This document shows, piece by piece, positions 905-17,803 of a DNA stretch of 20,000 nucleotides (the stretch's first letter is position 1; each line of letters begins with the position of its first letter). The stretch lies in the IMG/VR virus record IMGVR_UViG_3300044655_001510; one strand, given 5' to 3'. The notes below the pieces were generated by a model. That model worked only from the letters and a program-made list of their open reading frames with translations, ran no database searches and was not told the origin of the DNA. This DNA comes from an uncultured virus (IMG/VR IMGVR_UViG_3300044655_001510). Taxonomy: Duplodnaviria > Heunggongvirae > Uroviricota > Caudoviricetes. Both the position numbers and the translations under genes were made by a program.

Positions 905-922
905 ACCAAAGTAAGCTATTAT
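894..922 (+). promoter_or_regulatory. sigma70-type early promoter
   Basis: TTGACA(894)-N17-TATTAT; 12-mer ATTATCTTTTAG overlaps the -10. Confidence 0.65.
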
Positions 923-951
923 CTTTTAGAAAATCACCAAAGGAAAATCAA

Positions 952-1320
952 ATGGCAGAAAACAAATGGCATTATCACGATTGGTATGCAGTACAAAGAA
1001 CCCATGTGGAATTCGATACTGTAAAACTATTAACACTAGAAACAAACAAAGGCGTAGTTCATAAACTTGTACCAAACAAAATCATTGGTAAACTAGAATA
1101 TGAGTTTGGTAATAACTGTTTGAAATACTTGATTCATACTGCTACCCTAGAGAAACTACAAGATGCGGATATCTTCTATGAGTGTGAAGACAAGTTGTTT
1201 AAGTTTATTTCTTGTAATGGAGACTTAGCCGTTATAGCAGCAAAAGCCATGCGATACGAAATTCCATTTGCTGATATCGCATACAAAGAATTTGAATTAA
1301 AAACTGCATTAAAGTGGTGA
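952..1320 (+). CDS. hypothetical phage protein
   Basis: 122-aa ORF, AAGGA RBS, directly after promoter. Confidence 0.75.
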   Translation: MAENKWHYHDWYAVQRTHVEFDTVKLLTLETNKGVVHKLVPNKIIGKLEYEFGNNCLKYLIHTATLEKLQDADIFYECEDKLFKFISCNGDLAVIAAKAMRYEIPFADIAYKEFELKTALKW

Positions 1321-1324
1321 AGCT

Positions 1325-1558
1325 ATGATAATTGAAGAATTTGGGATTGAACTAGCACCACTGTCAGAATCCGCGATGTCATATACCGAAGCAAAAATGT
1401 ATTGCTTCACATTAACGTATGATGATAAGATCGGTTGGAGATTACCAAGCTACGATGAATGGGAAATCATTCCACATATCGTCGGATGGCACGAAAACAA
1501 GTTGGCAAGCGATAGTACTTTTCCACGACGAGTTATGCCAGTGAGAGATTTGAGATGA
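1325..1558 (+). CDS. mini-CLec/DUF1566-like small protein
   Basis: IELAP..SYTEAKMYCFTL..KIGWRLPS..W..MPVRD. Confidence 0.85.
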   Translation: MIIEEFGIELAPLSESAMSYTEAKMYCFTLTYDDKIGWRLPSYDEWEIIPHIVGWHENKLASDSTFPRRVMPVRDLR

Positions 1559-1638
1559 TTGAAATAGGTGAACGAACAAAATTCGAAATGACGCATGATA
1601 ATAACAACTTCTTAACAAACAACATAATGGAGTTACGC

Positions 1639-1830
1639 ATGATTGAACAATTTTCACATATAGGTACCGACCATATTTGCAATGTTTGTTCTTGCGAATT
1701 TTCGGATGACGAAGGCGGAATTCAAGGATACTTTGGAATACTTCCAGTTGCATTTTGTCCAACCTGTTACAGTAGTATGTACGATATGGTTCAGCAAGAC
1801 ATGGAATACATGGACGACCTCGACGAATAG
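1639..1830 (+). CDS. small CxxC..CxxC (zinc-finger-like) protein; in-frame upstream part from 1555 looks like a mini-CLec remnant
   Basis: GGAG RBS at 1629 before ATG 1639; CNVC...CPTC; acidic tail. Confidence 0.7.
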   Translation: MIEQFSHIGTDHICNVCSCEFSDDEGGIQGYFGILPVAFCPTCYSSMYDMVQQDMEYMDDLDE

Positions 1831-1833
1831 TAG

Positions 1834-1861
1834 TTGACATCCAGTCAACTACAGGTATAAT
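1834..1861 (+). promoter_or_regulatory. sigma70-type early promoter
   Basis: TTGACA-N16-TATAAT; inverted repeat TAGTTGAC..GTCAACTA covers the -35. Confidence 0.75.
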
Positions 1862-1888
1862 ACTCTTAACTTAACACAGGAGTACAAC

Positions 1889-2197
1889 ATGCAAAAACTA
1901 CACAGAGACTTTAAACGATGGTTGAAATCAAATGGATTGCAACCAGAAGGTCGAAAAAAATCAAAAAGCTGGAGACGGCTATTCTCAACTTGCCCACCTT
2001 ACTTTATTGGCAATGATCGCAGATGGCGTTTCTTGGTACCAGAAAACGGACAACTCAGATTTCAAGTTTCTTGTCCATTAGAACACTTTGATCGTTGGGC
2101 TAACAGTGCTGGTGAAAGTATTCCACTACCACAAACTAAAGAAGAGTTTGACAAAGCTATCCAACAACTGATATTATCTTCTAAGGATTTGACATGA
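1889..2197 (+). CDS. hypothetical basic phage protein
   Basis: 102-aa ORF with AGGAG RBS after promoter. Confidence 0.8.
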   Translation: MQKLHRDFKRWLKSNGLQPEGRKKSKSWRRLFSTCPPYFIGNDRRWRFLVPENGQLRFQVSCPLEHFDRWANSAGESIPLPQTKEEFDKAIQQLILSSKDLT

Positions 2198-2203
2198 TAA
2201 ACC

Positions 2204-2400
2204 CATTCACAACAGGTATACAAGTCAACTACCCGACGACTAAAGATCGTCGGGCTTGCTTACTCCCATGACTAACTACTGGTGATTTAGTAGATCTCTC
2301 GATTTTAGAAGTCATTTTCAGTAAAGCCTCTGGGATTACTCCCACATCGCCTGTTGCGTGCGATGATAATTTGGTTCCATAATTGAGTCTTTGCCCTTCA
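2204..2400 (-). ncRNA. putative TnpB omega/reRNA (scaffold plus flank-derived guide); 5' boundary uncertain
   Basis: TnpB reRNAs are known to overlap the tnpB 3' end and right end and read into the flank; RE hairpin present. Confidence 0.55.
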
Positions 2401-3646
2401 TGGAGAATATTTGTGGCAGCATTCAAGTCTCTGTCATGGACTTCGCCACAAGAAGGGCATTCCCATTCACGAGTTGCTAAATCCAATGATTCGAGTTTAT
2501 GGCCACAGCAAGAACAGGTCTTGCTACTTGGATAAAACCTGCCTACTTGTTGAACAAGAACGCCAGCCCATTCCGCTTTATATTTGATCATTTCTGAAAG
2601 AGTAGACCAAGCGATTTCGTGGATTGCTCTGCTGAGTTTCCGGTTCTTAAGTAAATTACTGACTGCCAAATCTTCTAAATAAATCACGTCATTGGTAGCC
2701 ACTAGGTATTTACTAAGGATATGATAATACTCATTTCGCTGTCGCGTAATCTTGGAATACAAACGAGCCACCTGAATCCGTAGTTTCTCGTGGTTTTTGC
2801 TGCCTTTGGTAGTTCTTGCAAACTGCTTTTGTTTGCGTTTCAATAGCTGCTTGGTTTTCGCATGGTATAGCAACGCATCTGGTTTTAAAAATCGAAGACC
2901 ACTTGAAGTAATCATCAAATCTTTAATACCTAAATCAAAACCGACTTCTCGATTTTTGTAATCTTGGGTGGGTACATCTGTTTCTATTAGCACAGATGCA
3001 TAATACCGATCATCTGGATTTTTAGGAACGGTTATTGATTTAACAACTGCACCTTCAGGGATTGGTCTATGGATAACTGCTTTTACTTCTTTTAATTTTG
3101 GAAGTTTAATGGCATTATCTAGTACTTTGGTTCCTCGACCAGGGGTTCGATATGACTGACGTCCATGTTTTGATTTGAACCTTGGCTCTTCTACTCGTTT
3201 ACCTTTTCTGTTTCCAGCACGGGATTTGAACATGTTATCATATGCAGCTGCGAGGTCAGCTGATGCGCCTTGTAAGGCATTCATGTCTACTTCGCAAAGG
3301 AATTCCAGTTCTTTCTTTAACGGGGTAATGAGTTTATTGACCGCGAATCCATTCAGGTGTGGTTCACCTGCCAAATATCTTCGTTCATTTTCTGCTTTAA
3401 ATCGGTTATAGATCAGTCTCTTGCAACCAAATGTCTTCCCAATCAGAATTTGTTGCTCTGATGTCGGGTATATACGATATTTGATTGCAATTAATCTTTT
3501 CATGTCTGTATTTAGCATTTGACAAAGAACGACTTATGGATTAACGTATGGTTTTATTACTTGATGGGGAATTAAACATGAATAGCGAATTACCACACGC
3601 ATTCCTCCCGGCGACTAAAGATCACCGGGTTTCCTGCGCGAATCAG
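2224..3646 (-). mobile_element. IS200/IS605-family, tnpB-only (IS1341-like) element
   Basis: Matching subterminal hairpins CCCGACGA-CTAAAGA-TCGTCGGG (2232-2254) and CCCGGCGA-CTAAAGA-TCACCGGG (3607-3629); right end ...GGGTAGTTGAC; TTCAT flanks left end on - strand; no TSD, no tnpA. Confidence 0.85.
2229..3503 (-). CDS. tnpB: RNA-guided endonuclease TnpB
   Basis: N-terminal KYRIYPT..FG HTH; RuvC-I GFDLG, RuvC-II LEDL, zinc ribbon CSCCG..CPSCG, RuvC-III DRDLNAA; start 3503 (or 3518). Confidence 0.95.
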   Translation of the reverse strand: MKRLIAIKYRIYPTSEQQILIGKTFGCKRLIYNRFKAENERRYLAGEPHLNGFAVNKLITPLKKELEFLCEVDMNALQGASADLAAAYDNMFKSRAGNRKGKRVEEPRFKSKHGRQSYRTPGRGTKVLDNAIKLPKLKEVKAVIHRPIPEGAVVKSITVPKNPDDRYYASVLIETDVPTQDYKNREVGFDLGIKDLMITSSGLRFLKPDALLYHAKTKQLLKRKQKQFARTTKGSKNHEKLRIQVARLYSKITRQRNEYYHILSKYLVATNDVIYLEDLAVSNLLKNRKLSRAIHEIAWSTLSEMIKYKAEWAGVLVQQVGRFYPSSKTCSCCGHKLESLDLATREWECPSCGEVHDRDLNAATNILHEGQRLNYGTKLSSHATGDVGVIPEALLKMTSKIERSTKSPVVSHGSKQARRSLVVG

Positions 3647-3936
3647 ATGAATCTAAGAAATCTGTTTGCAGATGCAATTGAAGATTGTATATTTTTAGAC
3701 ACCGGTGATGACAAAGATGTTGCATTAGAACCGTATAAAGGTAGTCTTCTTTACTGGATAGAAGACAAACCAGAAAATGCAATGGTTGGTTTTAAATTAG
3801 GATTACGTCCTATATTAATGGAACATAAACACAACCAGCATGCACGATGGGATCCATATCCTTGTGTAAGTAATTGGAAAGATATCTATCAAACAATCCA
3901 ACGCGATCAGTAACCCAAACTAAAAGATAATGTCCT

Positions 3937-3944
3937 CTAAATAC
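3937..3944 (+). promoter_or_regulatory. T4-late-like promoter CTAAATAC
   Basis: Similar to T4 late TATAAATA; no -35; same motif at 5900, 13099 (+) and 3508, 7968, 11578 (-). Confidence 0.55.
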
Positions 3945-3971
3945 TTCAATACCAAAAGAGGACATTATCCA

Positions 3972-4784
3972 ATGCGAATTCACGAACTACTAGAACCAAA
4001 GAAACCTTTAACTGCAGTTAAAAGTTCAACTGTATCAAAATCTGGGATGCAAGGTTCTAAGAACAAAATAGCACAACGTACTTTTACCACAAACAAAGGT
4101 AATCAAGTAGACATTCAATTCAAAACAACAACCGATGGCGATGAGAAAACAACCGATGTTGTTTTCTATGTTAATGGTACAATGTATGATACCGCATCGA
4201 CTGAAGGAAAAGATATTGATAATGATTTTGATATTCTATCTGGGGTTGGCTACATTGTTAAAACCTATCTTGACAAAGCCAAAATCGACCGATGCACTTT
4301 CTCTGCACATTCAACTCCTAGTGATACAAAACACAAATTCAATATACCAGTAGAAAGACCTAAAAGAGAATTACTCGCATCATTGCAAGGTTTAAGTTCA
4401 GTGACAAACGAGTTACTAAAAACTGAAGAAGATGAGATTAGAAAGAATAAGTACAATGTGGTATTAGAAACAATCGAGGCAATCAAACAATATCTTACCC
4501 AGCCAGTTGAAAAATATAGTTCAAGTGAGTTTGATAAACTATACTGGCAAATACGCAAAGCTGCTGACATGAAACTCAGCAAATATCCAGAGATGAACGA
4601 AGCCTTCAAACAACTAGAACGATTCATGTCAGTGATCACTAGTTACTCTCCAGAAGGCGTACACGTTAGACAAAATCGTAGATTCGCAGTCTATTCTAAA
4701 ATCCTTAACAAGTTCTTCTCTAGCACTTGGGATATCGAAACCTACGGTGATAGCTTCATCCTTACTAGAAAGGCATCAGTATGA
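3972..4784 (+). CDS. putative virion internal protein (MRIHELLE N-terminus)
   Basis: GAGGA RBS before ATG 3972; N-terminus resembles T4 capsid-targeting sequence. Confidence 0.7.
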   Translation: MRIHELLEPKKPLTAVKSSTVSKSGMQGSKNKIAQRTFTTNKGNQVDIQFKTTTDGDEKTTDVVFYVNGTMYDTASTEGKDIDNDFDILSGVGYIVKTYLDKAKIDRCTFSAHSTPSDTKHKFNIPVERPKRELLASLQGLSSVTNELLKTEEDEIRKNKYNVVLETIEAIKQYLTQPVEKYSSSEFDKLYWQIRKAADMKLSKYPEMNEAFKQLERFMSVITSYSPEGVHVRQNRRFAVYSKILNKFFSSTWDIETYGDSFILTRKASV

Positions 4785-5587
4785 GAATCGCAGAAATCTT
4801 AAGTGAACGTATATCGTTATCAACCTACACCCCAACAATAAACCGAGCACTACATAACGCTGTTGTAAACATATTCAAAACGCCAACGCAACCACCATCG
4901 AAAATGGATATGCAGTTTATGGTCAAGTACAACACTGCGTTTGTTAATGCGATCAAACCTATTCTAACAGATTACGCAAAACAAATAACAAACAGTGAGG
5001 TTACTATTCAGTTTAAATCCCTACCCAATGGAACCGGCCAGTACATAGAAGATACCAACACGATAACTATTTCACCTAAAGTACTTTCAAAATTAATAAC
5101 ACTGTTATATAAACAGTTGACAGATAAGATTGACGTTTCTACTGAACTAGATACTATCATTGGTTACTTGACTTCAGTATTCCTGCATGAAGTTACTCAT
5201 GCCACACAAGTAAGTCACGGACAACGATACGAATACAAACATGGCTATATCGAAAAGGACAAAATCAAATTCTTTACAGCCTTGATTCAGGATGAATTCA
5301 AATCAGAAGAAGAGAAAGTAAGAGCACACGAAATCTACAAATCTCAACCAGATGAAATAGCAGCATACGCACAAGAAGCTGCATCGGATCTAATCAATAA
5401 TATTCATAAGTTACCTGTAGCTGAACAAGCCACTGCTATTACTGTATTCCTAAAAGAAATCTCAAAGCAAGCAACTACCTATTCTGATTTTAAGAATAGA
5501 CAAGAACCAGGCTACGAGAAAGTATATCGCAGATACTTGAAATCAATCTACCAACATCTTACTGATTATCAATCAAGTTTAAGTTGA
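4781..5587 (+). CDS. zincin-like metalloprotease-domain protein, putative virion internal protein
   Basis: FLHEVTHATQ (HExxH) plus downstream PDEIAAYA; N-terminus MRIAEILSE; ATGA overlap. Confidence 0.7.
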   Translation: MRIAEILSERISLSTYTPTINRALHNAVVNIFKTPTQPPSKMDMQFMVKYNTAFVNAIKPILTDYAKQITNSEVTIQFKSLPNGTGQYIEDTNTITISPKVLSKLITLLYKQLTDKIDVSTELDTIIGYLTSVFLHEVTHATQVSHGQRYEYKHGYIEKDKIKFFTALIQDEFKSEEEKVRAHEIYKSQPDEIAAYAQEAASDLINNIHKLPVAEQATAITVFLKEISKQATTYSDFKNRQEPGYEKVYRRYLKSIYQHLTDYQSSLS

Positions 5588-5612
5588 CCGAAACTAAAAG
5601 ATGATGTAGACA

Positions 5613-5855
5613 ATGACTATCGAAATAGCACCCATCGAATACCATGACGCAATGACATGGAATCAAGCTAAACTCTATTTGTTTGCATTGAACATAGATG
5701 GTAAGATTGGTTGGAGACTACCAACAAGAAAAGAGTTTAGCGTGGATATGCATGGCCTGTATTTATGTTGGGTACAAGAAGATCAATCATCATTGATGGA
5801 TTCAGAACTAGATACATTACAATACATATGTTATCCAGTCCGAGATGTCAAATAG
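5613..5855 (+). CDS. mini-CLec/DUF1566-like small protein
   Basis: IEIAP..TWNQAKLYLFALNIDGKIGWRLPT..CW..YPVRD. Confidence 0.85.
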   Translation: MTIEIAPIEYHDAMTWNQAKLYLFALNIDGKIGWRLPTRKEFSVDMHGLYLCWVQEDQSSLMDSELDTLQYICYPVRDVK

Positions 5856-5930
5856 TTCCCTGTCGAGAATATGAGTTTGCTATTCACGGAAAATACCAAA
5901 TAAATACACAAAATTAAGAGGATTACCAAA

Positions 5931-6650
5931 ATGCGCATCTGTGAACTAATTACAGAATCAAAACAACGCCTAGACCCAAGTTGTTGGAAGGGCAAACACA
6001 AAGAAGGTACCAAGATGAAAGGTGGTATCCGAGTCAATAACTGTGTACCAAACGAAAACTTCAATGCAGTATATGATGACGAAGCTGGGATGGCTCACAG
6101 CAATCTTCATACGCTTCGAAGAGCAGTCGATGGGCTACTCGATACAATCGACGATCATGAAAACTTACCAGAATGGGCTCAAGAGAAAATCGCAAAAGCA
6201 GAAAGCATGCTGGTTTCTGTTTGGGATTACCTACAAAGCCAAGAGGATCAAGGAGTCAACCCAACAGTTGACGAGATGTTCGACATGATAGAAGATATGG
6301 TAGAAAGTTTAGCCATCAAACATAACATTGATAGCGATCTTATATGGGAAGACTTTGAATCAGTCAGTGATCGTGAACTCTTTGAAACAGCCGCGTGGCA
6401 ACGCAAAGAAGGCAAGAACAAGAAAGGTGGTTTGAACAAGAAAGGTGTAGCAAGTTACCGCAGAGAACATCCCGGTAGCAAACTTCAAACTGCAGTTACT
6501 ACCAAACCAAGTAAACTCAAACCAGGTAGCAAAGCAGCCAAAAGACGTAAAAGTTTTTGTGCTCGAATGAGTGGTATGAAAGGACCAATGAAAGACGACA
6601 ACGGCAAGCCAACCAGAAAAGCACTGGCACTGAGAAAGTGGAACTGCTAA
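5931..6650 (+). CDS. modular phage protein with basic DUF6321-like C-terminal domain, putative internal head protein
   Basis: ATAAATAC at 5900; MRICELITE start; CWKG..VNNCVP module; LPEWAQEKI module; AWQRKEGKN..GGLN..RRKSFCARM module. Confidence 0.75.
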   Translation: MRICELITESKQRLDPSCWKGKHKEGTKMKGGIRVNNCVPNENFNAVYDDEAGMAHSNLHTLRRAVDGLLDTIDDHENLPEWAQEKIAKAESMLVSVWDYLQSQEDQGVNPTVDEMFDMIEDMVESLAIKHNIDSDLIWEDFESVSDRELFETAAWQRKEGKNKKGGLNKKGVASYRREHPGSKLQTAVTTKPSKLKPGSKAAKRRKSFCARMSGMKGPMKDDNGKPTRKALALRKWNC

Positions 6651-6655
6651 TCAAC

Positions 6656-6682
6656 AAGGGTATCTAAGTATACCCTTTTTTG
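6656..6682 (+). terminator. intrinsic terminator
   Basis: AAGGGTAT-ctaagt-ATACCCTT followed by T run. Confidence 0.75.
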
Positions 6683-6685
6683 TTA

Positions 6686-6713
6686 TTGACATAATTGATT
6701 GTTTCGGTATAAT
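6686..6713 (+). promoter_or_regulatory. sigma70-type early promoter
   Basis: TTGACA-N16-TATAAT; 12-mer at 6727 in leader. Confidence 0.75.
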
Positions 6714-6746
6714 ACACGGTAACTCAATTATCTTTTAGAGAATCGC

Positions 6747-6980
6747 ATGGCCATCGAAATAGCACCAGAAGAATATCACAAAGAAGAAATAACCTACTCG
6801 GAAGCATTGGTCTATTGCTTCTCCCTTGATATCGATGGTAAGATAGGATGGCGATTACCGACAGATCAAGAATACGTCTTTGAACTACCAGACCGGTACA
6901 ATGTACTTTTTCAAAATTGCAATTACTTTGATCATAATACAGCAACCTGCATACCAGTACGAGATGTAAAAGATGATTGA
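6747..6980 (+). CDS. mini-CLec/DUF1566-like small protein
   Basis: IEIAP..TYSEALVYCFSLDIDGKIGWRLPT..IPVRD. Confidence 0.85.
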   Translation: MAIEIAPEEYHKEEITYSEALVYCFSLDIDGKIGWRLPTDQEYVFELPDRYNVLFQNCNYFDHNTATCIPVRDVKDD

Positions 6981-7278
6981 AATAGCACCTAAAGAAACTG
7001 TAGCAAAACTTACGTGGGAAGATGCCAGACTCTACTGCTTCGCACTCAATGCAAACAACAAAACTGGATGGCGTTTACCTACCCTCGAAGAACTCTATTA
7101 CGTCAGAGAAAACTTAGATTATAAATTCGGTCATGATTACTACTGGTCGTCTGAGTCTACAGCAGATAGAGCTAATTGCGTTTTCATGGGAGGCTACAAG
7201 TATCCTAGTAAGGATTGTACAAGAAACTCACCAACCACTTTTACTTTCTACGTAAGAGCAGTCAGAGATATAACATGA
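6973..7278 (+). CDS. DUF1566/Lcl-like protein (longer form)
   Basis: TWEDARLYC..GWRLPTLEEL..YYWSS..YVRAVR, the canonical DUF1566 pattern. Confidence 0.85.
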   Translation: MIEIAPKETVAKLTWEDARLYCFALNANNKTGWRLPTLEELYYVRENLDYKFGHDYYWSSESTADRANCVFMGGYKYPSKDCTRNSPTTFTFYVRAVRDIT

Positions 7279-7571
7279 ACATCGAAATTGCACCAAAAGA
7301 AACTGAGGTCATAGCCAATTGGGAAGATGCCAAACTCTACTGCTTCGCACTTAATACAAATAACAAAACTGGTTGGCGTTTACCCACTAAAGAAGAACTT
7401 AATGAGATCTATGAATCAGGGAAAATTTTGGGGAATCATTGGTACTGGTCATCTTCTGATTCTAAGTACGATGCTAACTCTGTATGGGTTCAGGATTTTT
7501 CCAAAGGTTTCAAGTATTACGGTAATAAGACCAAAGACCTTAACCATGTTAGAGCAGTCAGAGATCTCTAA
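7275..7571 (+). CDS. DUF1566/Lcl-like protein (longer form)
   Basis: Start reassigned to 7275 (ATGA overlap); NWEDAKLYC..GWRLPTKEEL..WYWSS..VWVQDF..G..HVRAVR. Confidence 0.85.
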   Translation: MNIEIAPKETEVIANWEDAKLYCFALNTNNKTGWRLPTKEELNEIYESGKILGNHWYWSSSDSKYDANSVWVQDFSKGFKYYGNKTKDLNHVRAVRDL

Positions 7572-7962: not shown

Positions 7963-8014
7963 AACCAGTATTTAGCATGGAAATCACCAAAAATACACGA
8001 ATTTAACCCTTATA

Positions 8015-8210: not shown

Positions 8211-8498
8211 ATGAGTATAGAAGTATCACCTAGGGAGGCTGAAATGTTTGGAGATTGGTACGAGGCCACCCTTATTATAAAGAGTATGCGAGTAAATGAG
8301 CACGATAACTGGAGATTACCGACGATCACGGAACTTATCGACATATACAAGCAAGATAACGACTTTACGCTGTCTAATTACTGGAGTTCGGATGAAGCGG
8401 AGAACTTTGCGTTAGCACATAGTTTCAGTGACAATAGTACTAGTAGAATAGTTAAGACTAGGGTGGCGAGTATAAGGGCGGTGCGAGATGTCAACTGA
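8211..8498 (+). CDS. DUF1566/Lcl-like protein
   Basis: IEVSP..DWYEA..NWRLPTITEL..YWSS..IRAVRD. Confidence 0.85.
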   Translation: MSIEVSPREAEMFGDWYEATLIIKSMRVNEHDNWRLPTITELIDIYKQDNDFTLSNYWSSDEAENFALAHSFSDNSTSRIVKTRVASIRAVRDVN

Positions 8499-9786: not shown

Positions 9787-9895
9787 GTTACGAGCACCGC
9801 TAGGTGCGAGTCAATGGCTCGTGCCTATCGGCACTCGCAAACAACCAACCAAACAAGCAATATTAAAGTTGACAAATTATCTTTTAGGTGATAGA

Positions 9896-10316: not shown

Positions 10317-10463
10317 ATGGAAGAGTCAACAGATAAGGAACCGGTTGCATGGATGGCTAGGTATATTGACAAGGATGGCAATGAGGCGGTGTATACCACG
10401 ACTGTGTATGAGTTAGCAGTAGAGAACGATGCGAATGGCCAACCCATTCCATTATATATGTAA
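10317..10463 (+). CDS. 48-aa phage protein with EPVAW..PLY motif
   Basis: Manually translated MEESTDKEPVAWMARY...PIPLYM*; fills the gap between neighbours. Confidence 0.65.
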   Translation: MEESTDKEPVAWMARYIDKDGNEAVYTTTVYELAVENDANGQPIPLYM

Positions 10464-10482
10464 TTATCTTTTAGGTGAAATA

Positions 10483-11076: not shown

Positions 11077-11122
11077 GGCTCGCACCTAGCGGTGCTCGCA
11101 ATCTAAAAGTTTTACAACAGTG

Positions 11123-11162
11123 GAGGTGCATCACTTTGGGAGAGGTGATGTGCCTTTTCTTT
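11123..11162 (+). terminator. putative intrinsic terminator
   Basis: AGGTGCATCACTT..AGGTGATGTGCCT stem then TTTCTTT. Confidence 0.6.
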
Positions 11163-11172
11163 GTATAGGGTA

Positions 11173-11200
11173 TTGACAATTATCTTTTAGTTGTTATACT
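11173..11200 (+). promoter_or_regulatory. sigma70-type promoter with 12-mer in spacer
   Basis: TTGACA-ATTATCTTTTAG-ttgt-TATACT. Confidence 0.7.
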
Positions 11201-11287
11201 TTATCAATGGACACGCCAATGGCTCACTGAGCGGGGTGATGTTTAGTTAAAGCCGGTTGGCTTAATTTTAACGAAGGGGTTTATAAT

Positions 11288-11464
11288 ATGAGAGTAAGAA
11301 GTCGAGTAGATTATAGTGTAGTAATGGGATATAATGCTTTACAGGATGAATATAGATTGTTTAGTTATATGTGTAGTCCAAGGGAAGAAATAAGTGAATT
11401 GGAACAGAAAGAGAAGGCTGAGTTATTAGAAAGAGTACGTGAGTATATGATACAAAATTACTAG
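11288..11464 (+). CDS. 58-aa hypothetical protein
   Basis: Manually translated MRVRSRVDYS...YMIQNY*; GAAGGGG RBS. Confidence 0.55.
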   Translation: MRVRSRVDYSVVMGYNALQDEYRLFSYMCSPREEISELEQKEKAELLERVREYMIQNY

Positions 11465-11696
11465 AGAGTGAGCTATTGGGTAGTTATCTTTTAGGCCTGA
11501 ACTTTAGAGTGTGAGCTATTGGGTAATGATCTTTTGAGTATTGCTTTTGTGTTGAACCGCGATTGGTTCGCATGATTGTATTTAGTGTTTGTTTTGAATT
11601 TTTGGGATTATGGCTCGCACCTAGCGGTGCTCGCGAGCGTTAGCGAGCCTATATACCCGCTGTAGCGTTATGTACCCATACGTATAGAGAGGATTT

Positions 11697-11942
11697 ATGA
11701 ATAAGTATATTGTATTAGTTTGTGTTTCGGTGGTGTTATTGTTTGGAGTATTGGGTTTATCTATACAGGAAGTCAATACAAGATCAGCTGATGATTGGAT
11801 AGATTCTAGGATAGAGACTGGTCAGGATCGTTTTGGTAACTGTTATCTGTATGTTAAGCCATGGCAGTGGATTCAACTGGTTGAGTGTGATCGTATAGGT
11901 AAGGCAGTTAAGCCAGTTGATAAGTTTGGTAATAGCTTATAG
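11697..11942 (+). CDS. small membrane-anchored protein
   Basis: GAGGA RBS; hydrophobic N-terminal segment. Confidence 0.7.
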   Translation: MNKYIVLVCVSVVLLFGVLGLSIQEVNTRSADDWIDSRIETGQDRFGNCYLYVKPWQWIQLVECDRIGKAVKPVDKFGNSL

Positions 11943-11984
11943 TATACCCGCTGTGCATGTGGGTGTAGGTACGTGTATATAGAG

Positions 11985-12121
11985 TTGACAAGTTAAATAT
12001 ACTTTGATATACTAATATCTTCTTAGTAGAACAAGAATAATGTTGTAGAGTTTATCCAATCAAGCTGTCACTTGGTTGGTTTATTGAATAAGAGGCAGAC
12101 TTTGCCCAGTCTGCCTTTTTT
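11985..12121 (+). ncRNA. candidate ~100-nt small RNA with own promoter and terminator
   Basis: TTGACA-N17-TATACT (11985-12013); hairpin CCAATCAAG..CTTGGTTGG; terminator AGGCAGACT..AGTCTGCCT-TTTTT; no ORF. Confidence 0.5.
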
Positions 12122-12234
12122 ATTGCCTGTTGGAAATACTACATAGTGTGTCATCACAACCTAAAAGATAATGATTGACACTACAGACATATCACATTAA
12201 TATTTGGCATTTTTAACCTTTGGAGATAAAGCAG

Positions 12235-12735
12235 ATGAAAAACAACTCACCAACTGTTTCTTGGAAAGATCTTGACAGTTTATCATTTCATAAAGATAAC
12301 AAACTGTTTGACATTGTAATGGTTACTAACAGAAACAGAAGTAACATTAAGTCGTATATTAAGTCGAAATGCGACCTAGTAGGTGGATGTTATTATTGGT
12401 TTCGTGGAGATGGAGATATTCGCGGTGCTGTTCAAGTGTTCATTGATAAACGAAAACCACTCTCTCAGGGTAAGCCATATGAAGTAATCAAAAATGGTAA
12501 ACGTTGCAGAACATTAAAAACTGATCTTATTGACGTTATGTCAGTTATGTCTGCAAATGATTTAACCATTGCTGATTTAACTGGTATAACGTTTAACAAG
12601 AATGGTAAACAACTAAACCTAGTATGTATGGGTAACGTTCCAATTGTTGGAGTGGAGACGTTGGATGATTTAGTAACCAAACTTTACGACAATGAATATG
12701 CGGTTGATATGGATAGTCTGGTGAGTACCCAGTAG
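12235..12735 (+). CDS. hypothetical phage protein
   Basis: GGAG RBS before ATG 12235; promoter TTGACA(12175)-N17-TAATAT. Confidence 0.75.
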   Translation: MKNNSPTVSWKDLDSLSFHKDNKLFDIVMVTNRNRSNIKSYIKSKCDLVGGCYYWFRGDGDIRGAVQVFIDKRKPLSQGKPYEVIKNGKRCRTLKTDLIDVMSVMSANDLTIADLTGITFNKNGKQLNLVCMGNVPIVGVETLDDLVTKLYDNEYAVDMDSLVSTQ

Positions 12736-13224
12736 GAACCTGGTTCGTTATTGCGAGTGCCGGTAGGCACGAGCTTGTAACATAACTGTCATAATCAGGT
12801 ATATATAGAATGCGGCCTGCAGAGGAAAAAAAAGGCACACTAAGGGAGAAGAGATTTGTTGATCTTCTTCCTGATGCCTTTTGGTGGCTTCCTTGGATTC
12901 TTCTTCCTGGTCTTGCTCTTCTCCTGATTCTCCTCAGAATCCCTCGAGTAATTGCACAAGAAAATCGATCGAGCAATTGGTGATATCACTAAAAGATAAT
13001 TGAACTATTGATGAAGTTATCTTTTAGATATATTAGTTGACTGATTGGTTATGGATATGATAGTATTAATTCGACTAAAAGATAATGGAGGTCCTGTACT
13101 AAATACATGAGTTAAAAGTTCGATTGATCATAATCATTTTTCTTAAACCCCTAGCTAGGTTGGCCAACCGAATTAGGGGTGGTTTGATCAGAGAACTGGT
13201 AACACAAACCATAGGAAGAATAAG

Positions 13225-15006
13225 ATGATCGAAATCCACGAGTCTGTGTACGAAGCAATGTATGCGGAGTTTTCTAAAAAATCAGTAGATAAAGCACTTG
13301 AGAAGTATTCTAAGGTCTTGTCTAACTTGATACATATATCAATTACAAACGATTACGCATGTACTGCGTATAGTCAGTATCAGATCCCGTTACAATCATT
13401 GGTGACCAAAGGTGGTAAGATCACTGATTCCAAGGGGAAACAGATACGAGTTCATTCCTGGCTAAAAGATAATAAGCCAATCATAAAAGTTCTAAACATG
13501 GGTAATAGTTTACAGAAGGTAAAATCTACTATTTCCCTAATTGACAACCGATGTACTTACACAGATCTATTTGACATGAGCCTAGAAGAATACGAAGAAA
13601 AACAACTTAACATCCAGACTGATGATTTCCTTGATAATGAAATGTATGATGATTTATTCTACAGGGAATATCCAGAGGTTCTATATGCAAGACAAGGATT
13701 GATGTCAGTTGATGATTGCCTAGCGATGTTTCACCCAATTGAAGTTAATGCTACAACGTTAACTAATTACTTGAATTGGCTTATCTATGACAGTACTAAG
13801 TTGGATGAGAACCAACGCAAGAGTTATATACGTAAGGCTAAGATGATATTGGCCCTAGCACATAAAGGAGATGGGTATTGGTTCCAGCGGAAGAAGCAGA
13901 GTGTATTTGGCCGGTTGTATTATGTTGGGTTATCGATGCATAACATTCCAAGGGAAATGCGTAAGAATGTATTGGGTGATTCATGGCAGTATGATATCAG
14001 TTCTTCATCCATTGCCTGGAAGTATAGTTATGCAGCTGCGTATAACCGAGAAGTTAAACCAGAAAGGTTCCAGTATACTAATCATTACCTGACAGATAAG
14101 GAAGACTTTATACAGGACTGTTTGAAGCACGTGTTCTTATGCCGTACTTACAAAGACAAGGAGGGTAATGTTCACCGGTATGATCCTGAGTGGTGTCGTA
14201 AAAAGATCAAGGCTATGATGAATGCCATATCTTTTGGTGCGAAGGTATTCGGGATTGTCATACCCAACCCAAAAGATCCAGATAATCCATTGGTTAATTC
14301 GTTAGGTGATATCCTAAAAGATAATGAAATCCGTGATGCATTTTTGAATCATGATTTGATTAGTGGATTTATCTATGAGCATATGGAGTTAGCTGAGTTT
14401 ATCCTAGAGAAGAATAAGAGTATATTGGCTCCGTTAACCTGTACTAAAACAGATACTGGGCGTCGTAGTAAGGCCAAAGAGATGGCTTACTTGTACCAGC
14501 ATGCTGAGACTGAGATCATGACTAGAGCTACTTCGATTGCGGAAGCAATGGGGCATGAGATACTAATCGGTGTGCATGACGCGTTCATTGTGCGAAATAA
14601 GATTGCATTTGATGATCTGCAGGAGATTGAGCTGTGCATCCAATCAGAGTTTGGTATGCCATATTGGAAGTTAGTGGGTGAGAAACTTACTGGGTATACT
14701 GCGATGGTTGGTCCTAGAGTTGAGGATAATGACCGTAAGGTTGCCATTCATAGATTAGTCATACGTGAGCAGGAATATGAATTGTCACGTGGTAATACTA
14801 CTCGGATCATTGAATCGGATATTGATGATTCATTAATTGAACCAGAGATGCGAGCCATTAAGGAGGAACGCGAACGCTATGCTAAACGCCATCGTGACTC
14901 TTGGGGTACAGATTACTTTGATGGTTCTGATCATAGATACGATGGTGTTCAGTATGGGGATGAAGAGTACTTGTATGAATATGACGACGAGGATGACGAA
15001 GACTAG
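13225..15006 (+). CDS. divergent family-A polymerase-fold protein (Pol A / T7-RNAP-like)
   Basis: FGRLY..HNIP..R; QYDISSS (motif A Asp); RKKIKAMMNAISFG (R-x3-K-x7-aromatic-G, motif B); YQHAE; GVHDAF (motif C); acidic tail. Confidence 0.7.
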   Translation: MIEIHESVYEAMYAEFSKKSVDKALEKYSKVLSNLIHISITNDYACTAYSQYQIPLQSLVTKGGKITDSKGKQIRVHSWLKDNKPIIKVLNMGNSLQKVKSTISLIDNRCTYTDLFDMSLEEYEEKQLNIQTDDFLDNEMYDDLFYREYPEVLYARQGLMSVDDCLAMFHPIEVNATTLTNYLNWLIYDSTKLDENQRKSYIRKAKMILALAHKGDGYWFQRKKQSVFGRLYYVGLSMHNIPREMRKNVLGDSWQYDISSSSIAWKYSYAAAYNREVKPERFQYTNHYLTDKEDFIQDCLKHVFLCRTYKDKEGNVHRYDPEWCRKKIKAMMNAISFGAKVFGIVIPNPKDPDNPLVNSLGDILKDNEIRDAFLNHDLISGFIYEHMELAEFILEKNKSILAPLTCTKTDTGRRSKAKEMAYLYQHAETEIMTRATSIAEAMGHEILIGVHDAFIVRNKIAFDDLQEIELCIQSEFGMPYWKLVGEKLTGYTAMVGPRVEDNDRKVAIHRLVIREQEYELSRGNTTRIIESDIDDSLIEPEMRAIKEERERYAKRHRDSWGTDYFDGSDHRYDGVQYGDEEYLYEYDDEDDED

Positions 15007-15056
15007 GCTCGCTCCTATCGGAGCTCGCTATACCTATCTACCCGCTGTACAGGTAC

Positions 15057-15084
15057 TTGACATCCGTACATATACATGTATAAT
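15057..15084 (+). promoter_or_regulatory. sigma70-type promoter
   Basis: TTGACA-N16-TATAAT. Confidence 0.7.
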
Positions 15085-15115
15085 ACAAACTTTCTAACTA
15101 ACCGATTAAACCCTT

Positions 15116-15448
15116 ATGAAAAAGTTATTAGCAGTAATCGCTTTATTAGCATCGTTAAACGCCAATGCATATACCTTGGATGATATCAAGACTCAGATGT
15201 TAAACGCTGGGTTCTTGGTAGACTACGACGCAATGAAACTCAATCCACATATCATAGTAGCTTGGAAGCGTGGGATGAGCAGATATCAATGTGATCTCTA
15301 TACCAACTCTATGATTAAAGAGATGAACTATCCACATGTAACTCAGGAGAATACCGCTGATGGTAGAATCGAAATGATAGTGAATAATCCTGGACTTGTT
15401 CTTGGTTGTGCTGCCAATCAATCGTTTGTATGGCTGATCAAATCCTAG
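15116..15448 (+). CDS. exported protein with Sec signal peptide
   Basis: MKKLLAVIALLASLNANA, AxA cleavage site. Confidence 0.75.
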   Translation: MKKLLAVIALLASLNANAYTLDDIKTQMLNAGFLVDYDAMKLNPHIIVAWKRGMSRYQCDLYTNSMIKEMNYPHVTQENTADGRIEMIVNNPGLVLGCAANQSFVWLIKS

Positions 15449-15520
15449 TTACCCGCTGTGCGTGTTAGTAGCTCGTGCTAATATACACGTATAATTGTTC
15501 AATTTTCAACTACTTTCTTG

Positions 15521-15689
15521 TAAGTCATTGAATTATAAAGACATTATCTTTTAGACCCTTAAAATAATAATGATATAAATCAATGACTTACAAACAGTAC
15601 CTTTAAACAGTATCTTACCCTGGTTACCCTACAGGGTCAATAATCTACAATACACAAAAATCACACCGAACGCTTGTAAGTTATTGATA
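15521..15689. promoter_or_regulatory. cluster of three IHF-like sites
   Basis: 15578 AATCAATGACTTA (+), 15677-15689 TATCAATAACTTA (-), 15521-15533 ATTCAATGACTTA (-, one mismatch). Confidence 0.6.
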
Positions 15690-15768
15690 TAACTATCTAT
15701 AATTTCTACTTTACCCGCTGAAGAAGGTATGGTAATATACACGCATTCACACATATAGGAGAGTACAC

Positions 15769-15987
15769 ATGTTAAAAGTTGATGATGGTATCTACCAGGC
15801 CCGGATTTTCTATGCTGGTAAGAATGCAGTAGAGATTCATGTATACAGGAAGCATTGGAAGTTCTGGTGGCAGTTTGTTTGGCAGGCCACCTGGGATGCT
15901 GAACAGTTAGATTTCAAGACAATCCGTGCTTGTGCACTGGAAGCCATTGAGTGTGCACGTATGGTTGAGTCAGGCAACCCGCTGTGA
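15769..15987 (+). CDS. small Trp-rich hypothetical protein
   Basis: AGGAG RBS; 72 aa. Confidence 0.7.
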   Translation: MLKVDDGIYQARIFYAGKNAVEIHVYRKHWKFWWQFVWQATWDAEQLDFKTIRACALEAIECARMVESGNPL

Positions 15988-16028
15988 GCATACGTACATA
16001 TAGAACAATTATCTTTTAGGAGAAGAAA

Positions 16029-16334
16029 ATGTCATTAGAGTCAGCAATAATAACCGCACTATGGATCGGTGGGTTCGTATTCATTGTTACGTTAATCCAC
16101 GTAGGTAAACTTAAGTTCATTGAGCTATGGAGGGATAGTCCGTGGAATACACTTGGAATATGTGCGATCCTTGGAATTCAGGTAGGAGTCATATTAATGC
16201 AGGTATGGTATTTCGTACCCGCTGCATACATACCCGATCCTGCGATGATAGAGCGGATCAAAAGGGTTGAATGCCATTCACCACGCTGTGAAGAGATAGT
16301 CAATGATCTTTTAGCAAGAGTTTCAGCTAAATAA
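16029..16334 (+). CDS. two-TM membrane protein
   Basis: AGGAG RBS; two hydrophobic segments. Confidence 0.75.
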   Translation: MSLESAIITALWIGGFVFIVTLIHVGKLKFIELWRDSPWNTLGICAILGIQVGVILMQVWYFVPAAYIPDPAMIERIKRVECHSPRCEEIVNDLLARVSAK

Positions 16335-16338
16335 AATC

Positions 16339-16369
16339 AAAAAAGCCATCGAAAAGATGGCTTTTTTAT
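16339..16369. terminator. bidirectional intrinsic terminator
   Basis: AAAAAAGCCATC-GAAAA-GATGGCTTTTTT. Confidence 0.85.
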
Positions 16370-16462
16370 GCCTAAAAGATAATTGTTCCACGTGAAACAA
16401 ATAGCTTGACAGATGGGAAATTATCTTTTAGACTGTTGCCAACTTAACTGGAGGGTATACAA

Positions 16463-16669
16463 ATGAACCATAACGCAATATTGAAGCAGGCTAGAGCCAA
16501 TGCAAAGGCATTGGGGTTGACATTACTGAAGTTAAAGGGTAAGATAGATGGTATTTCTTGGTATGCGATAGTACCGAGAAGAAGGTCTGGCTTGCCAATG
16601 ATTGGGTTTGAACGCGTATCATTGGGCTGTGCTGCCAGTAAACTACAGGCATTAAGCCAATCGGAGTAA
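16463..16669 (+). CDS. small basic hypothetical protein
   Basis: Promoter TTGACA(16406)-N17-TAGACT; GGAGG RBS. Confidence 0.7.
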   Translation: MNHNAILKQARANAKALGLTLLKLKGKIDGISWYAIVPRRRSGLPMIGFERVSLGCAASKLQALSQSE

Positions 16670-16673
16670 TTAA

Positions 16674-16874
16674 ATGGCAAACTACTTACAAGCAACAACA
16701 GCAACTGGCGTAACCATCATCGACTCAACAGATCTTCCTGAAGGCGCAGACATCCTGTATCCACATGACTTCATGGATGATTTGAGATCCCTAAAAGATG
16801 GGGAAGTCATCTTCACTTATGTGTATCCAGACGAGCAAGAGTGGATTGATAGGGATTTTGGTATACAGAGTTGA
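16674..16874 (+). CDS. small acidic hypothetical protein
   Basis: GGAG RBS; 66 aa. Confidence 0.7.
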   Translation: MANYLQATTATGVTIIDSTDLPEGADILYPHDFMDDLRSLKDGEVIFTYVYPDEQEWIDRDFGIQS

Positions 16875-16930
16875 CAAGTAACCAGTAACTTGGTAGACTA
16901 ATGCCAACTTAAACCCAAGAGGATACTACG

Positions 16931-17122
16931 ATGATAGATTCATATATTGAGAAAGTTAAACAAATCCCAGAGGCTTATGAGCAGTATTCTGTACTGTACG
17001 AGCAGTATGAGGGAGAATCCAATCTGGATTTTATTGAGAGATGTGCTGTCATGGACTTTGATGATGGTGCATATCAAGGCAGTGTTTACCAAGAACTGTA
17101 TGATGAGTTGGTGGGTTGTTGA
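16931..17122 (+). CDS. small acidic hypothetical protein
   Basis: Promoter TTGACA(16871)-N17-TAGACT; GAGGA RBS. Confidence 0.7.
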   Translation: MIDSYIEKVKQIPEAYEQYSVLYEQYEGESNLDFIERCAVMDFDDGAYQGSVYQELYDELVGC

Positions 17123-17182
17123 CAACTCAGCTAACTACTGGTAGGCTATAAGCCGAAACATAAACATACAGGAGCAAACAAA

Positions 17183-17356
17183 ATGAACGAACCGACATTT
17201 ATACTAGGCACAAAACCGCGTAATGATTCGATCAAACTGGACTTGGACGAGCTGCAAGCTATGCCAGAGGAGGAGGCAATTGCAATCATTGCAGACTATA
17301 AGCGACGTGGTTATTGGTTTTCTTTATCCAATGACTCGATAATCGCATCACACTAA
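17183..17356 (+). CDS. 57-aa hypothetical protein
   Basis: Manually translated MNEPTFILGTKPRNDSIKLDLDELQAMPEEE...; promoter at 17119, AGGAG RBS. Confidence 0.7.
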   Translation: MNEPTFILGTKPRNDSIKLDLDELQAMPEEEAIAIIADYKRRGYWFSLSNDSIIASH

Positions 17357-17429
17357 AAGATAATTTGACAAGGTGGGTATTTTCGAGTAGGATGTACCCA
17401 CATTAACAAAGCACTACAGGAAAACAACA

Positions 17430-17660
17430 ATGCTAAGAGATAGACAAGCCGCAAATCGCATTATAACCTTACTAGAGTTACCTGCAACTGATATTGGTAG
17501 CCTTACTGATTTATTAACAGACATTATCCATTACTGCAATATAGAGGGTGAGGATTTCAATGAGTTACTAAAAGATGCTCAAGATTATGCAAAGCAAGAG
17601 ATAGCAATGGATGAAGTGGAGTTGGACGAGATTGCAGAATCAGAATGGAATAGAATCTAA
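17430..17660 (+). CDS. hypothetical phage protein (DLL.DII.YC family)
   Basis: Own promoter cassette; homologous to C-terminal half of 18916-19173. Confidence 0.75.
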   Translation: MLRDRQAANRIITLLELPATDIGSLTDLLTDIIHYCNIEGEDFNELLKDAQDYAKQEIAMDEVELDEIAESEWNRI

Positions 17661-17803
17661 AAAACAGTTGACAACTGGGTAAAGATCTACTAAACTATAC
17701 CCACCTTGAAACAAGGCAACCCACTAAAAGATAATGATTGACAAGGTGGTAATTATCTTTTAGAATATACCCACCTTAACAAAGCACTACAGGAAACAAG
17801 ACA

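Follow-up and report, generated by a model that had tools for sequence, protein, structure and literature searches.

An asymmetric 12-mer as a putative early-promoter operator in an uncultured freshwater jumbo phage

A stretch of 20,000 nucleotides from an uncultured virus of the class Caudoviricetes (IMG/VR record IMGVR_UViG_3300044655_001510), referred to here in its whole length as the window, carries 18 exact copies of the asymmetric 12-mer CTAAAAGATAAT, nine on each strand. We propose that this word is probably the operator of a lineage-specific regulator, most likely encoded by the phage itself, that recognizes double-stranded DNA at sigma70-type early promoters. Several lines of evidence point to this function. 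The word is exact, asymmetric and sharply bounded and is used in both orientations. Its orientation follows a rule that depends on position, and it is restricted to a set of gene modules and to a subset of promoters. Finally, copies within genes are constrained at the level of DNA, and the word is absent from isolated relatives of the phage.

The window is the early region, rich in small open reading frames (ORFs), of a jumbo myovirus that is uncultured, comes from freshwater and has a T4-type capsid. For comparison, IMG/VR was scanned for a convergent pair of the 12-mer, which returned 18 stretches on nine contigs. Among these is a relative of the window, G001, a contig of 327,256 bp that is rated 92% complete and whose positions 119,046 to 97,758 are collinear with the window at 85-96% identity, with replaced segments between. 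Genes of G001 were called with a simple in-house ORF scorer, giving 479 ORFs and 89% coding sequence; the Pfam scans mentioned below covered 451 of these ORFs. A further and more distant relative, L077, is a metagenome contig of 8,036 bp that encodes an AraC-type protein 75% identical to that of the window and carries 14 exact copies of the identical word.

Chance does not account for the number of copies. In the window 0.01 copies are expected, and none of 200 dinucleotide-preserving shuffles reached 18; sites with at most one mismatch number 27 where 0.25 are expected. An initial annotation of the window had listed the 18 copies and judged that well under one should occur by chance, and every position and strand that it gave was recovered. 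The near-copies it named (682, 5594, 8838, 11483, 13016 and 18529) are likewise real, and three more lie at 4360, 8963 and 16303. It had also proposed genome-wide k-mer enrichment as a check, and CTAAAAGATAAT proves to be the most frequent 12-mer both in the window and in G001. The G001 contig has 139 exact copies, 68 forward and 71 reverse, against none for a reversed-word control, and its core 9-mer CTAAAAGAT occurs 247 times. One-mismatch variants in G001 are found only zero to seven times at ten of the twelve positions. The tolerated changes are A>G at position 10 (45 copies) and T>C (21) or T>G (8) at position 12, and the tolerated variants can be written as CTAAAAGAT[A/G]A[T/C]. Beyond the twelve bases the information content drops to about 0-0.6 bit, save for a weak TGA/GA signal immediately downstream.

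The initial annotation had allowed that the copies might trace to recent duplication of a larger repeat. This is not the case. None of the 18 window copies and 44 of the 139 copies in G001 share at least 70% of their 25-bp flank with another copy (the top value in one set of 139 random 25-mers was 64%), which leaves unrelated flanks for all 18 and for 95 copies, respectively. With flanks that are mostly unrelated, the word cannot be put down to the duplication of a longer unit. In the literature searched, the 12-mer appeared in no relevant paper in either orientation, and we know of no Fur, IHF, DnaA or marbox consensus that fits its conserved positions.

The relation of the word to promoters is geometrically precise. 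In G001 we considered 235 sigma70-like sites with at least five of six matches to TTGACA, of which 51 contain a core copy. Measured from the first base of the -35 element, forward copies start at -14 (10 copies) or -12 (5 copies) and end 2 or 0 nt before it. Reverse 9-mers start at +17 (12 copies), where their TAG forms the first three bases of the -10 element, or at +11 to +13 (10 copies), where the word lies inside the spacer. In total, 24 reverse copies lie downstream of the -35 within these promoters, and 44 of the 60 promoter-associated copies face the -35. Orientation is therefore tied to position: upstream copies read toward the -35, and downstream copies, in the spacer, are inverted. 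It follows from this rule that convergent pairs, about 27-28 bp apart, bracket the -35. The same positions are seen in the window, where the copies that the initial annotation had placed just upstream of TTGACA (12161, 17353 and 17724) end 0-2 nt before it and those it had assigned to the spacer between -35 and -10 (9876, 11179, 16420 and 17752) are indeed located there.

Only some early promoters carry the word. Nine of the 23 promoter-like sites on the + strand of the window (perfect TTGACA, at least 10 of 12 consensus matches) have a copy in or adjoining them, and six window promoters that match the consensus at 12 of 12 positions (1834, 15057, 18851, 19180, 19492 and 19826) have none. As some consensus promoters lack a copy, only part of the early promoters can belong to the set. 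Near its right end the window contains seven related early-promoter cassettes, each with the arrangement TTGACA-17-TA(T/G)(A/G)AT, an inverted repeat GGTGGGTA/TACCCACC around the -10 element, and a conserved leader ACCCACCTTAACAAAGCACTACGGAG ahead of a small ORF. Two cassettes have the exact word and one has a one-mismatch copy; in three of the remaining four, CTAAAAACAAAT stands at that same offset of -14. Because near-identical cassettes occur with and without the word, it marks a subset of early promoters, a pattern that looks like a regulon rather than a general promoter element. The inverted repeat of these cassettes could be a second operator.

Genome-wide, 114 of the 139 exact copies in G001 are intergenic, although intergenic DNA makes up 10.9% of the contig. 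Relative to the nearest downstream gene, 58 of the intergenic copies are in the same sense and 56 are in the opposite sense, a balance that argues for recognition on double-stranded DNA rather than RNA. Copies reach a density of two to five per kb of intergenic DNA in small-ORF modules at 20-170, 220-240 and 300-327 kb, and intergenic copies are absent from 0-20, 180-220 and 280-300 kb, where capsid, tail and nucleotide-metabolism genes reside. Neighbouring copies no more than 120 bp apart form 20 convergent versus four divergent pairs, with 11 of the 20 convergent pairs at 26-28 bp. Direct arrays with 32-33-bp spacing are also present in G001; the window itself has no array. The initial annotation had suggested either a global regulator of early promoters or a self-marking, nucleoid or DNA-translocation signal. 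The first suggestion agrees with the fixed offsets, the small-ORF modules, the conservation and the absence from isolates. The second fits poorly because coverage of the whole genome or a strand bias would be expected, whereas large blocks free of intergenic copies and a 68/71 distribution were found.

The remaining 25 exact copies in G001 lie inside ORFs, 15 in the same sense as the gene and 10 in the opposite sense. That all 15 same-sense copies use one reading frame is trivial, since TAA is present in each of the other two. In the ORFs of G001 the tetrapeptide LKDN is found 19 times where 1.8 would be expected, and in 17 of these cases the exact word encodes it, whereas codon usage predicts about 5%. 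Given this excess and the codon choice that matches the word, the in-gene copies are constrained at the DNA level. In the window, two copies lie in frame in an ORF of 593 amino acids (13225-15006) that had been described as polymerase-like. The location is correct, but the description finds no support, as the ORF has no match in Pfam or PHROG and none by tblastn in 50,697 phage records. It has a 95%-identical ortholog in G001 and is absent from the syntenic stretch of L077.

Copies are also placed at starts and ends of genes. Six reverse copies in G001 lie 9-10 nt before a start codon, as do those at 10463 and 16008 of the window, and such copies are fused to the Shine-Dalgarno sequence as TAGGTGA or TAGGAGA. 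The idea that the word can supply a ribosome binding site is borne out at 9876, 10463 and 16008, where these sequences stand 8-9 nt before ATG. Three forward copies overlap an ATG (3920 in the window and two in G001), and terminator hairpins precede some copies, for example that at 16372. The TnpB cassette of the window is free of copies, as had been noted. The variant with G at position 10, CTAAAAGATGAT, has a particular distribution: 20 of its 45 copies in G001 encode the ...LKDD-stop end of tandem Lcl_C-like paralogs and overlap the next ATG. The number of these copies may be due to paralogy. The Lcl_C/DUF1566-like proteins are about 70-105 amino acids in length, account for 48 Pfam hits among the scanned G001 ORFs and are often encoded in tandem. 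At their junctions the stop (..RDLKDD-TGA) overlaps the next ATG (MIEIAP..), which spells the G-variant.

Conservation in relatives was another check that had been proposed, and it supports function. Most window copies are present at the homologous place in G001; those at 9876, 16008 and 17353 are absent there, though their flanks align at 87-96%. Nine window sites can be aligned to L077 over at least 50 bp, and seven of these are conserved at 12 of 12 positions. Over these alignments, 101 of 108 motif columns are identical, compared with 694 of 821 flanking columns (84.5%; Fisher p = 0.012). When ten related contigs are pooled, full conservation is seen in 146 of 189 site comparisons, whereas flank identity would predict 58, figures that are indicative only because the comparisons are not independent (contigs overlap and some alignments are paralogous). 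The pattern is all-or-none, a site being either exact or gone, as would suit a recognition word under selection whose sites are now and then gained or lost. The copy at 16008, which is gone in G001 and present in L077, is an example of such turnover.

The word is specific to this lineage. In the nearest isolated phages the core 9-mer is found seven times (CBB), seven times (Vibrio phage 2.275.O) and once (Sinorhizobium phage Phosso), no more than the reversed control, compared with 247 times in G001. A search for the pair pattern in one genome each of 185,579 bacterial and archaeal species gave only five single long hairpins in unrelated metagenome-assembled genomes. We attribute these to chance, as they are accompanied by no further copy and show no similarity to G001. 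The sites in the window and the features discussed below are collected in Table 1.

Table 1. Copies of the 12-mer and associated features in the window, followed by RNA elements of the related contig G001
Feature	Position	Strand	Context	Relatives
Lcl_C/DUF1566-like paralogs	394-904, 5613-5855, 6973-7278, 8211-8498			
G-variant CTAAAAGATGAT	682..693	+	Gene junction: ..RDLKDD-stop of ORF 394-696 and overlapping ATG (689) of next MIEIAP.. paralog	
12-mer, exact	918..929	-	Overlaps -10 TATTAT (917-922) of promoter-like site 894-922, upstream of ORF 952-1320	Conserved at homologous G001 place
TnpB (IS605 OrfB-type) cassette	2222-3526 (also given as 2229-3518)	-		Not at homologous place in G001
12-mer, exact	3920..3931	+	Between stop of ORF 3548-3913 and ATG 3930, overlapping the ATG (..ATAATG)	Conserved in G001
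12-mer, one mismatch	4360, 5594	+		
12-mer, exact	6727..6738	-	13 nt past -10 of 12/12 promoter 6686-6713, 8 nt before ATG 6747; early transcribed region	Conserved in G001
12-mer, one mismatch	8838, 8963, 11483, 16303	-		
AraC-type HTH_18 protein, 235 aa	9079..9786	+	Candidate binder; Pfam E 4.6e-08	
12-mer, exact	9876..9887	-	1 nt past TTGACA (9869-9874), spacer of TTGACA-17-TAGAAT; TAG + GTGA gives Shine-Dalgarno-like AGGTGA, 8 nt before alternative in-frame ATG 9896	Absent at homologous G001 place; present in L077 at 764
12-mer, exact	10463..10474	-	Directly before AGGTGA and ATG 10483 of second AraC-type gene	Conserved in G001; L077 12/12, flanks 100/120
AraC-type HTH_18 protein, 197 aa	10483..11076	+	Candidate binder	
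12-mer, exact	11179..11190	-	Right after -35 (11173-11178), spacer of TTGACA-16-TATACT, just downstream of terminator-like hairpin 11122-11157	
12-mer, exact	12161..12172	+	2 nt upstream of -35 at 12175 (offset -14), upstream of ORF 12220/12235-12735	
Convergent pair	12989-13000 (exact), 13016-13027 (one mismatch)	+, -	27 bp start to start	
12-mer, exact	13075..13086	+	Followed by GGAGG; intergenic, upstream of 593-aa ORF	Conserved in G001
12-mer, exact	13462..13473	+	In 593-aa ORF, in frame Leu-Lys-Asp-Asn	Conserved in G001
12-mer, exact	14314..14325	+	Second copy in 593-aa ORF, same frame (LKDN)	Conserved in G001
Inverted repeat TTGTAAGTCATTGA ... TCAATGACTTACAA	15480-15620		Arms about 50 nt apart, around copy 15543	Conserved in G001 and L077
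12-mer, exact	15543..15554	-	Centre of the long inverted repeat, intergenic 15449-15768	Conserved in G001; L077 12/12, flanks 98/120
12-mer, exact	16008..16019	-	TAG + GAGA gives AGGAGA, 9 nt before ATG 16029	Absent in G001, present in L077
Convergent pair	16372-16383, 16420-16431	+, -	Around promoter 16406-16434 (TTGACA-17-TAGACT); 16372 right after terminator-like hairpin 16338-16368; 16420 in spacer, gives TAG of -10	Both 12/12 in L077
12-mer, exact	17353..17364	+	Abuts -35 at 17365 (offset -12), PeSL-like promoter cassette	Not conserved: G001 has CTAAAAGAAGAT; L077 10/12
Seven related early-promoter cassettes	17365..19854	+	-35 at 17365, 17738, 18515, 18851, 19180, 19492, 19826	
Convergent pair, clearest architecture	17724..17766	+, -	CTAAAAGATAAT (17724-17735, +), GA, TTGACA (17738-17743), 8 nt, ATTATCTTTTAG (17752-17763, -), whose TAG begins -10 TAGAAT (17761-17766); 28 bp start to start	Both 12/12 in L077
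12-mer, one mismatch	18529	-	Spacer of promoter 18515-18543	
RF01718 RNA (G001)	L021:15014-15164	-		
RF01718 RNA (G001)	L028:5335-5485	+		
RF01718 RNA (G001)	L031:12703-12853	+		
RF01718 RNA (G001)	L035:10903-11053	+		

These observations suggest how a regulator might act. A protein bound to a spacer or -10 copy would exclude RNA polymerase. Since such occupancy would block polymerase and promoters with a perfect TTGACA and spacers of 16-17 bp need no activator, we infer repression. The main effect would then be repression, most likely in the form of a timed shut-off or a gating that concerns only some early promoters, about 40% of those in the window. Copies located before ribosome binding sites, after terminators or in genes could act as roadblocks or as extra sites of occupancy. 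The upstream copy is centred near -43.5, the classical position of a class II activator, and a protein bound there could touch polymerase, so that the same regulator might serve as both activator and repressor.

The binder is possibly, though doubtfully, one of the two AraC-type proteins encoded in the window, which are the sole candidates that can be recognised. These are paralogs with 27% identity, and the family of the 197-residue protein is small, with only six homologs (63-95% identity) among 5.8 billion clustered proteins. The transcription-factor-like domains detected in the Pfam scans of G001 were only two HTH_18 domains (the orthologs of the window proteins), one T4 DsbA-like protein and two small WYL-like proteins. 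A copy of the 12-mer that is conserved in G001 and L077 lies at the ribosome binding site of the gene for the 197-residue protein, which raises the possibility of autoregulation. Sites of the AraC/MarA type are asymmetric and are read by two helix-turn-helix (HTH) units of one chain, but they are bipartite and degenerate sequences of 17-20 bp. At MarA/SoxS/Rob class I and class II promoters the orientation of the site depends on its distance from the -35, and the half-sites of AraC may serve as either direct or inverted repeats, with spacings that differ. The 12-mer differs from such sites in having 12 contiguous, nearly invariant bases and in showing no second element in its flanks (about 0-0.6 bit outside), though 12 bases could still span two adjacent major grooves. 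Alternatively, the binder may well lie among the early ORFs that match nothing.

In a more ambitious version of the proposal, a single monomeric two-HTH protein of the AraC type would run the early programme from about 250 sites. Inward-facing pairs would clamp the -35 of selected promoters, other copies, in genes and at ribosome binding sites, would be roadblocks, and the arrays found beside four RF01718 RNA genes in G001 would be sinks or organising centres. We regard this version as rather unlikely. If it is true, no operator regulon known from a virus would come near this one in size, and it would provide the first function-linked context for the Polynucleobacter-1 RNA.

Polynucleobacter-1 RNA is Rfam family RF01718, of which there are four copies in G001 (68-80 bits, compared with a gathering score of 37) and none in the window. 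Each copy lies within a non-coding, ORF-poor repeat module of about 2 kb that holds 8-10 core copies. In these modules a reverse core lies at -79/-80 from the start of the RNA, and downstream there are three to five forward copies (+466 to +795) and then one to five reverse copies (+774 to +997). The RNA is a possible clue to the host, pointing to freshwater Betaproteobacteria, and its occurrence in G001 puts this orphan RNA family on a phage.

The 12-mer works like the dispersed operators of mycobacteriophage L5 and phage P1, yet it is a member of neither group. As described in the part of the literature available to us, the repressor gp71 of L5 and other cluster A phages, including that of TipsytheTRex in its structure with DNA, reads an asymmetric 13-mer at 'more than twenty' sites as a monomer with two DNA-binding domains, and these sites have an orientation that is strikingly correlated with the direction of transcription (PMC9283540). 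On that partial account, the systems share a short asymmetric word with many sites in promoters and short intergenic spaces, and the AraC-type candidates resemble the L5 repressor in having two HTH units per chain. In contrast to L5, there are 139 exact or 247 core copies here, and the word shows no overall bias in sense (58/56) but obeys an orientation rule relative to the -35. L5 is also temperate and its repressor confers immunity, whereas the phage studied here looks lytic. The Pfam scans, made on 451 of the 479 G001 ORFs, showed neither an integrase nor a CI-like protein, and no search was aimed at gp71 itself.

The C1 repressor of P1 has 22 operators with an asymmetric consensus of 17 bp that are dispersed genome-wide, according to the accessible portion of that work (PMC8546580). 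Within the limits of this source, the 12-mer is similar in being an asymmetric operator-type word that is dispersed in the genome, over 30-170 kb and 300-327 kb of G001, and overlaps promoters with fixed offsets, but it has fewer bases, outnumbers the P1 operators about six- to elevenfold and is much more exact. P1 has operators that lie over promoters and others that form pairs of inverted orientation. Unlike the apparently lytic phage examined here, P1 is a temperate plasmid prophage, and no C1 homolog was noticed in the Pfam output for 451 of the 479 G001 ORFs, no search having been made with the C1 sequence.

The promoter cassettes of the window invite comparison with the PeSLs of T4-like phages, which the portions of the two reports available to us describe as repeated early sigma70-type promoter cassettes with an inverted repeat, located between small variable ORFs (PMC4122927; PMC2839356) and thought to mediate recombination as whole cassettes (PMC4122927). 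As far as those portions go, the cassettes at 17365-19854 are like PeSLs. Unlike a PeSL, the 12-mer is far shorter, has unrelated flanks, is present in only some cassettes of a family and is also found outside promoters. A region of short ORFs under consensus sigma70 promoters is shared with Rak2/GAP32/CBB-type jumbo phages. The available part of the CBB paper describes a short-ORF region with RpoD-like early promoters and a UP-like element and reports no repeated operator-like word (PMC5259590). In place of the 12-mer, CBB (KU574722.1; loci L058-L076) has the palindrome AGTACT, which is present in 1235 copies where base composition would predict about 129, and which often directly abuts the -35 (AAAAAGTACTTGACA) or the -10 (AGTACTTTATAAT). 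AGTACT may be the CBB counterpart of the 12-mer. Vibrio phage 2.275.O (MG592671.1; loci L040-L057) has a 16-mer, TATAAAACATTAGTTG, in 21 copies (3 on the + and 18 on the - strand), and the two sets occupy separate parts of the genome with one orientation per region, so that it resembles a phage-specific promoter or leader.

Other explanations for the 12-mer were weighed against the operator. It might be a loading or clustering site for an architectural protein, similar to a nucleoid site, a centromere or partition site or an origin iteron, and overlap promoters only secondarily. The direct arrays with 32-33-bp spacing, the four 2-kb modules of G001 with their forward and then reverse blocks of copies and the retention of in-gene copies at the DNA level all agree with this possibility. 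We nevertheless consider it unlikely, since a site with a purely architectural role should not show fixed offsets and an orientation rule relative to the -35 and -10, the Pfam scans of 451 of the 479 G001 ORFs revealed no ParB-like, Rep-like or partition protein, and the window is devoid of arrays. Quite unlikely, in our estimate, is an intrinsic promoter module that requires no dedicated regulator and is read by RNA polymerase, or by a phage-modified polymerase or sigma factor, as a UP-like element upstream and as part of the spacer or -10 when inverted. UP elements are degenerate, A/T-rich and act only upstream. The 12-mer is exact at ten of twelve positions and is used inverted in the spacer, with the 24 reverse copies noted above downstream of the -35. 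The six 12/12-consensus promoters of the window show that the word is not needed for a consensus promoter, and many copies are far from promoter-like sites or in genes. An intrinsic module would account for the A-rich character of the upstream copy, which spans about -49 to -38, and for the related CTAAAAACAAAT at the same offset in cassettes that lack the word. It also has a parallel in the related phage CBB, whose early promoters are RpoD-like and follow a UP-like element in the accessible text (PMC5259590) and whose own word AGTACT abuts the -35.

We think it improbable that the word is a functionless footprint of PeSL-like promoter/terminator cassettes spread by recombination. The seven cassettes with an inverted repeat at the -10 do resemble the PeSLs of T4-like phages as described in the available part of that study (PMC4122927), segments lying between such cassettes are replaced when the window is compared with G001, and 44 of the 139 copies in G001 lie in larger repeats. 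Against this, flanks are unrelated for 95 copies in G001 and for all 18 in the window, members of one cassette family differ in whether they have the word, the word remains exact at places whose flanks have diverged, and it is written into unrelated genes through rare codon choice. There is very little likelihood of an RNA-level signal in early mRNAs, such as a translational operator or a site for an RNase or other processing, comparable to the RegA or RegB sites of T4. The reverse copies before start codons would read AUUAUCUUUUAGG(U/A)GA in the transcript, fused to the Shine-Dalgarno sequence, and three forward copies overlap ATG, but an RNA signal needs one sense and the 12-mer has 58 copies in the same and 56 in the opposite sense. 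Many copies also lie upstream of the -35, hence outside the transcript from that promoter, and convergent pairs bracket the -35. We find it equally hard to credit the word with a role in self-marking or translocation, or as a sequence acted on by a nuclease, nickase or DNA-modifying enzyme. A long, exact and lineage-specific word would suit such an enzyme, and G001 has genes for a methyltransferase and for several endonucleases (HNH, GIY-YIG and NUMOD). These endonucleases belong to homing types, however, and homing endonucleases have single targets; moreover, large parts of the genome lack the word, strand polarity is absent (68/71), and the promoter offsets are fixed.

Several points weigh against an operator of early promoters. 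About three quarters of the 247 core copies in the G001 scan are not beside a strong sigma70-like promoter, and promoter control alone does not explain the 25 of 139 copies in genes or the approximately 30-40 copies in the four 2-kb modules. The promoter scan of the window is barely above chance (77 sites against 62 +/- 9 in shuffles), so that the argument rests on the subset with perfect TTGACA and on the fixed offsets. The intergenic and coding counts for G001 depend on the simple ORF scorer. Conservation was measured among close relatives (73-96% identity) and overlapping contigs, and local alignments with L077 can be anchored by the word itself. With regard to the AraC-type candidate, the structure model is poor (predicted local distance difference test score, pLDDT, 52.5; alignment of six rows), and sites of the AraC family tend to be bipartite and to exceed 12 bp. 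Which way the regulation works is purely inferred.

The window has a G+C content of 39%, and nearly all of its ORFs are on the + strand. The majority encode fewer than 120 amino acids and belong to no Pfam or PHROG family; among those with a family are the TnpB cassette, the two AraC-type genes, several small Lcl_C/DUF1566-like genes and one gene for a GP88-family protein. No near-identical DNA was found in the 50,697 phage records. The structural genes of G001 include a T4 gp23-type capsid protein and a tail sheath, and the contig also encodes a family B DNA polymerase, ribonucleotide reductase, RNA ligase, ClpB, DnaJ, several TnpB proteins and homing endonucleases. Identity between its capsid protein and those of Vibrio phage 2.275.O, Phosso and the GAP32/CBB group is 65-68% (65.5% for CBB's major capsid protein). 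From its sequence, G001 appears to be a lytic T4-type jumbo phage, and the Pfam scans, which covered 451 of its 479 ORFs, showed no integrase, immunity gene or CI-like protein. The best match in G001 to the TnpB cassette of the window is at 172.5-173.8 kb (80% identity), and G001 has at least five TnpB-like ORFs. Two joints seen when contigs of sequencing runs were compared with the window, at 11180/17750 and 9838/17752, have short sides (at most 26 letters) and resemble other promoters of the family rather than deletions.

The window was present in 24 sequencing runs, comprising 22 DNA metagenomes from lakes or other freshwater and two metatranscriptome runs of one sample. Two RNA and two DNA runs were compared with the window as contigs, hence without starts, ends or strand. 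The contigs from the RNA libraries fall on the TnpB gene and on 9.1-11.7 kb, which includes the AraC-type genes; transcription is not inferred from them.

The principle of dispersed operators is known, and what is striking here is the scale and the geometry, with copies that face the -35 from both sides. The logic used by a few temperate phages would operate, with five to ten times as many sites, in an apparently lytic, uncultured phage. The geometric rule suggests how the regulator meets RNA polymerase, and the presence or absence of the word divides near-identical early promoters into two classes. The 12-mer is also a simple marker of this lineage in lake metagenomes, and once its binder is found the two may provide a compact and highly specific operator-regulator pair for synthetic control. 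The word would also define a testable regulon for a group of phages whose early genes almost all lack a known function.

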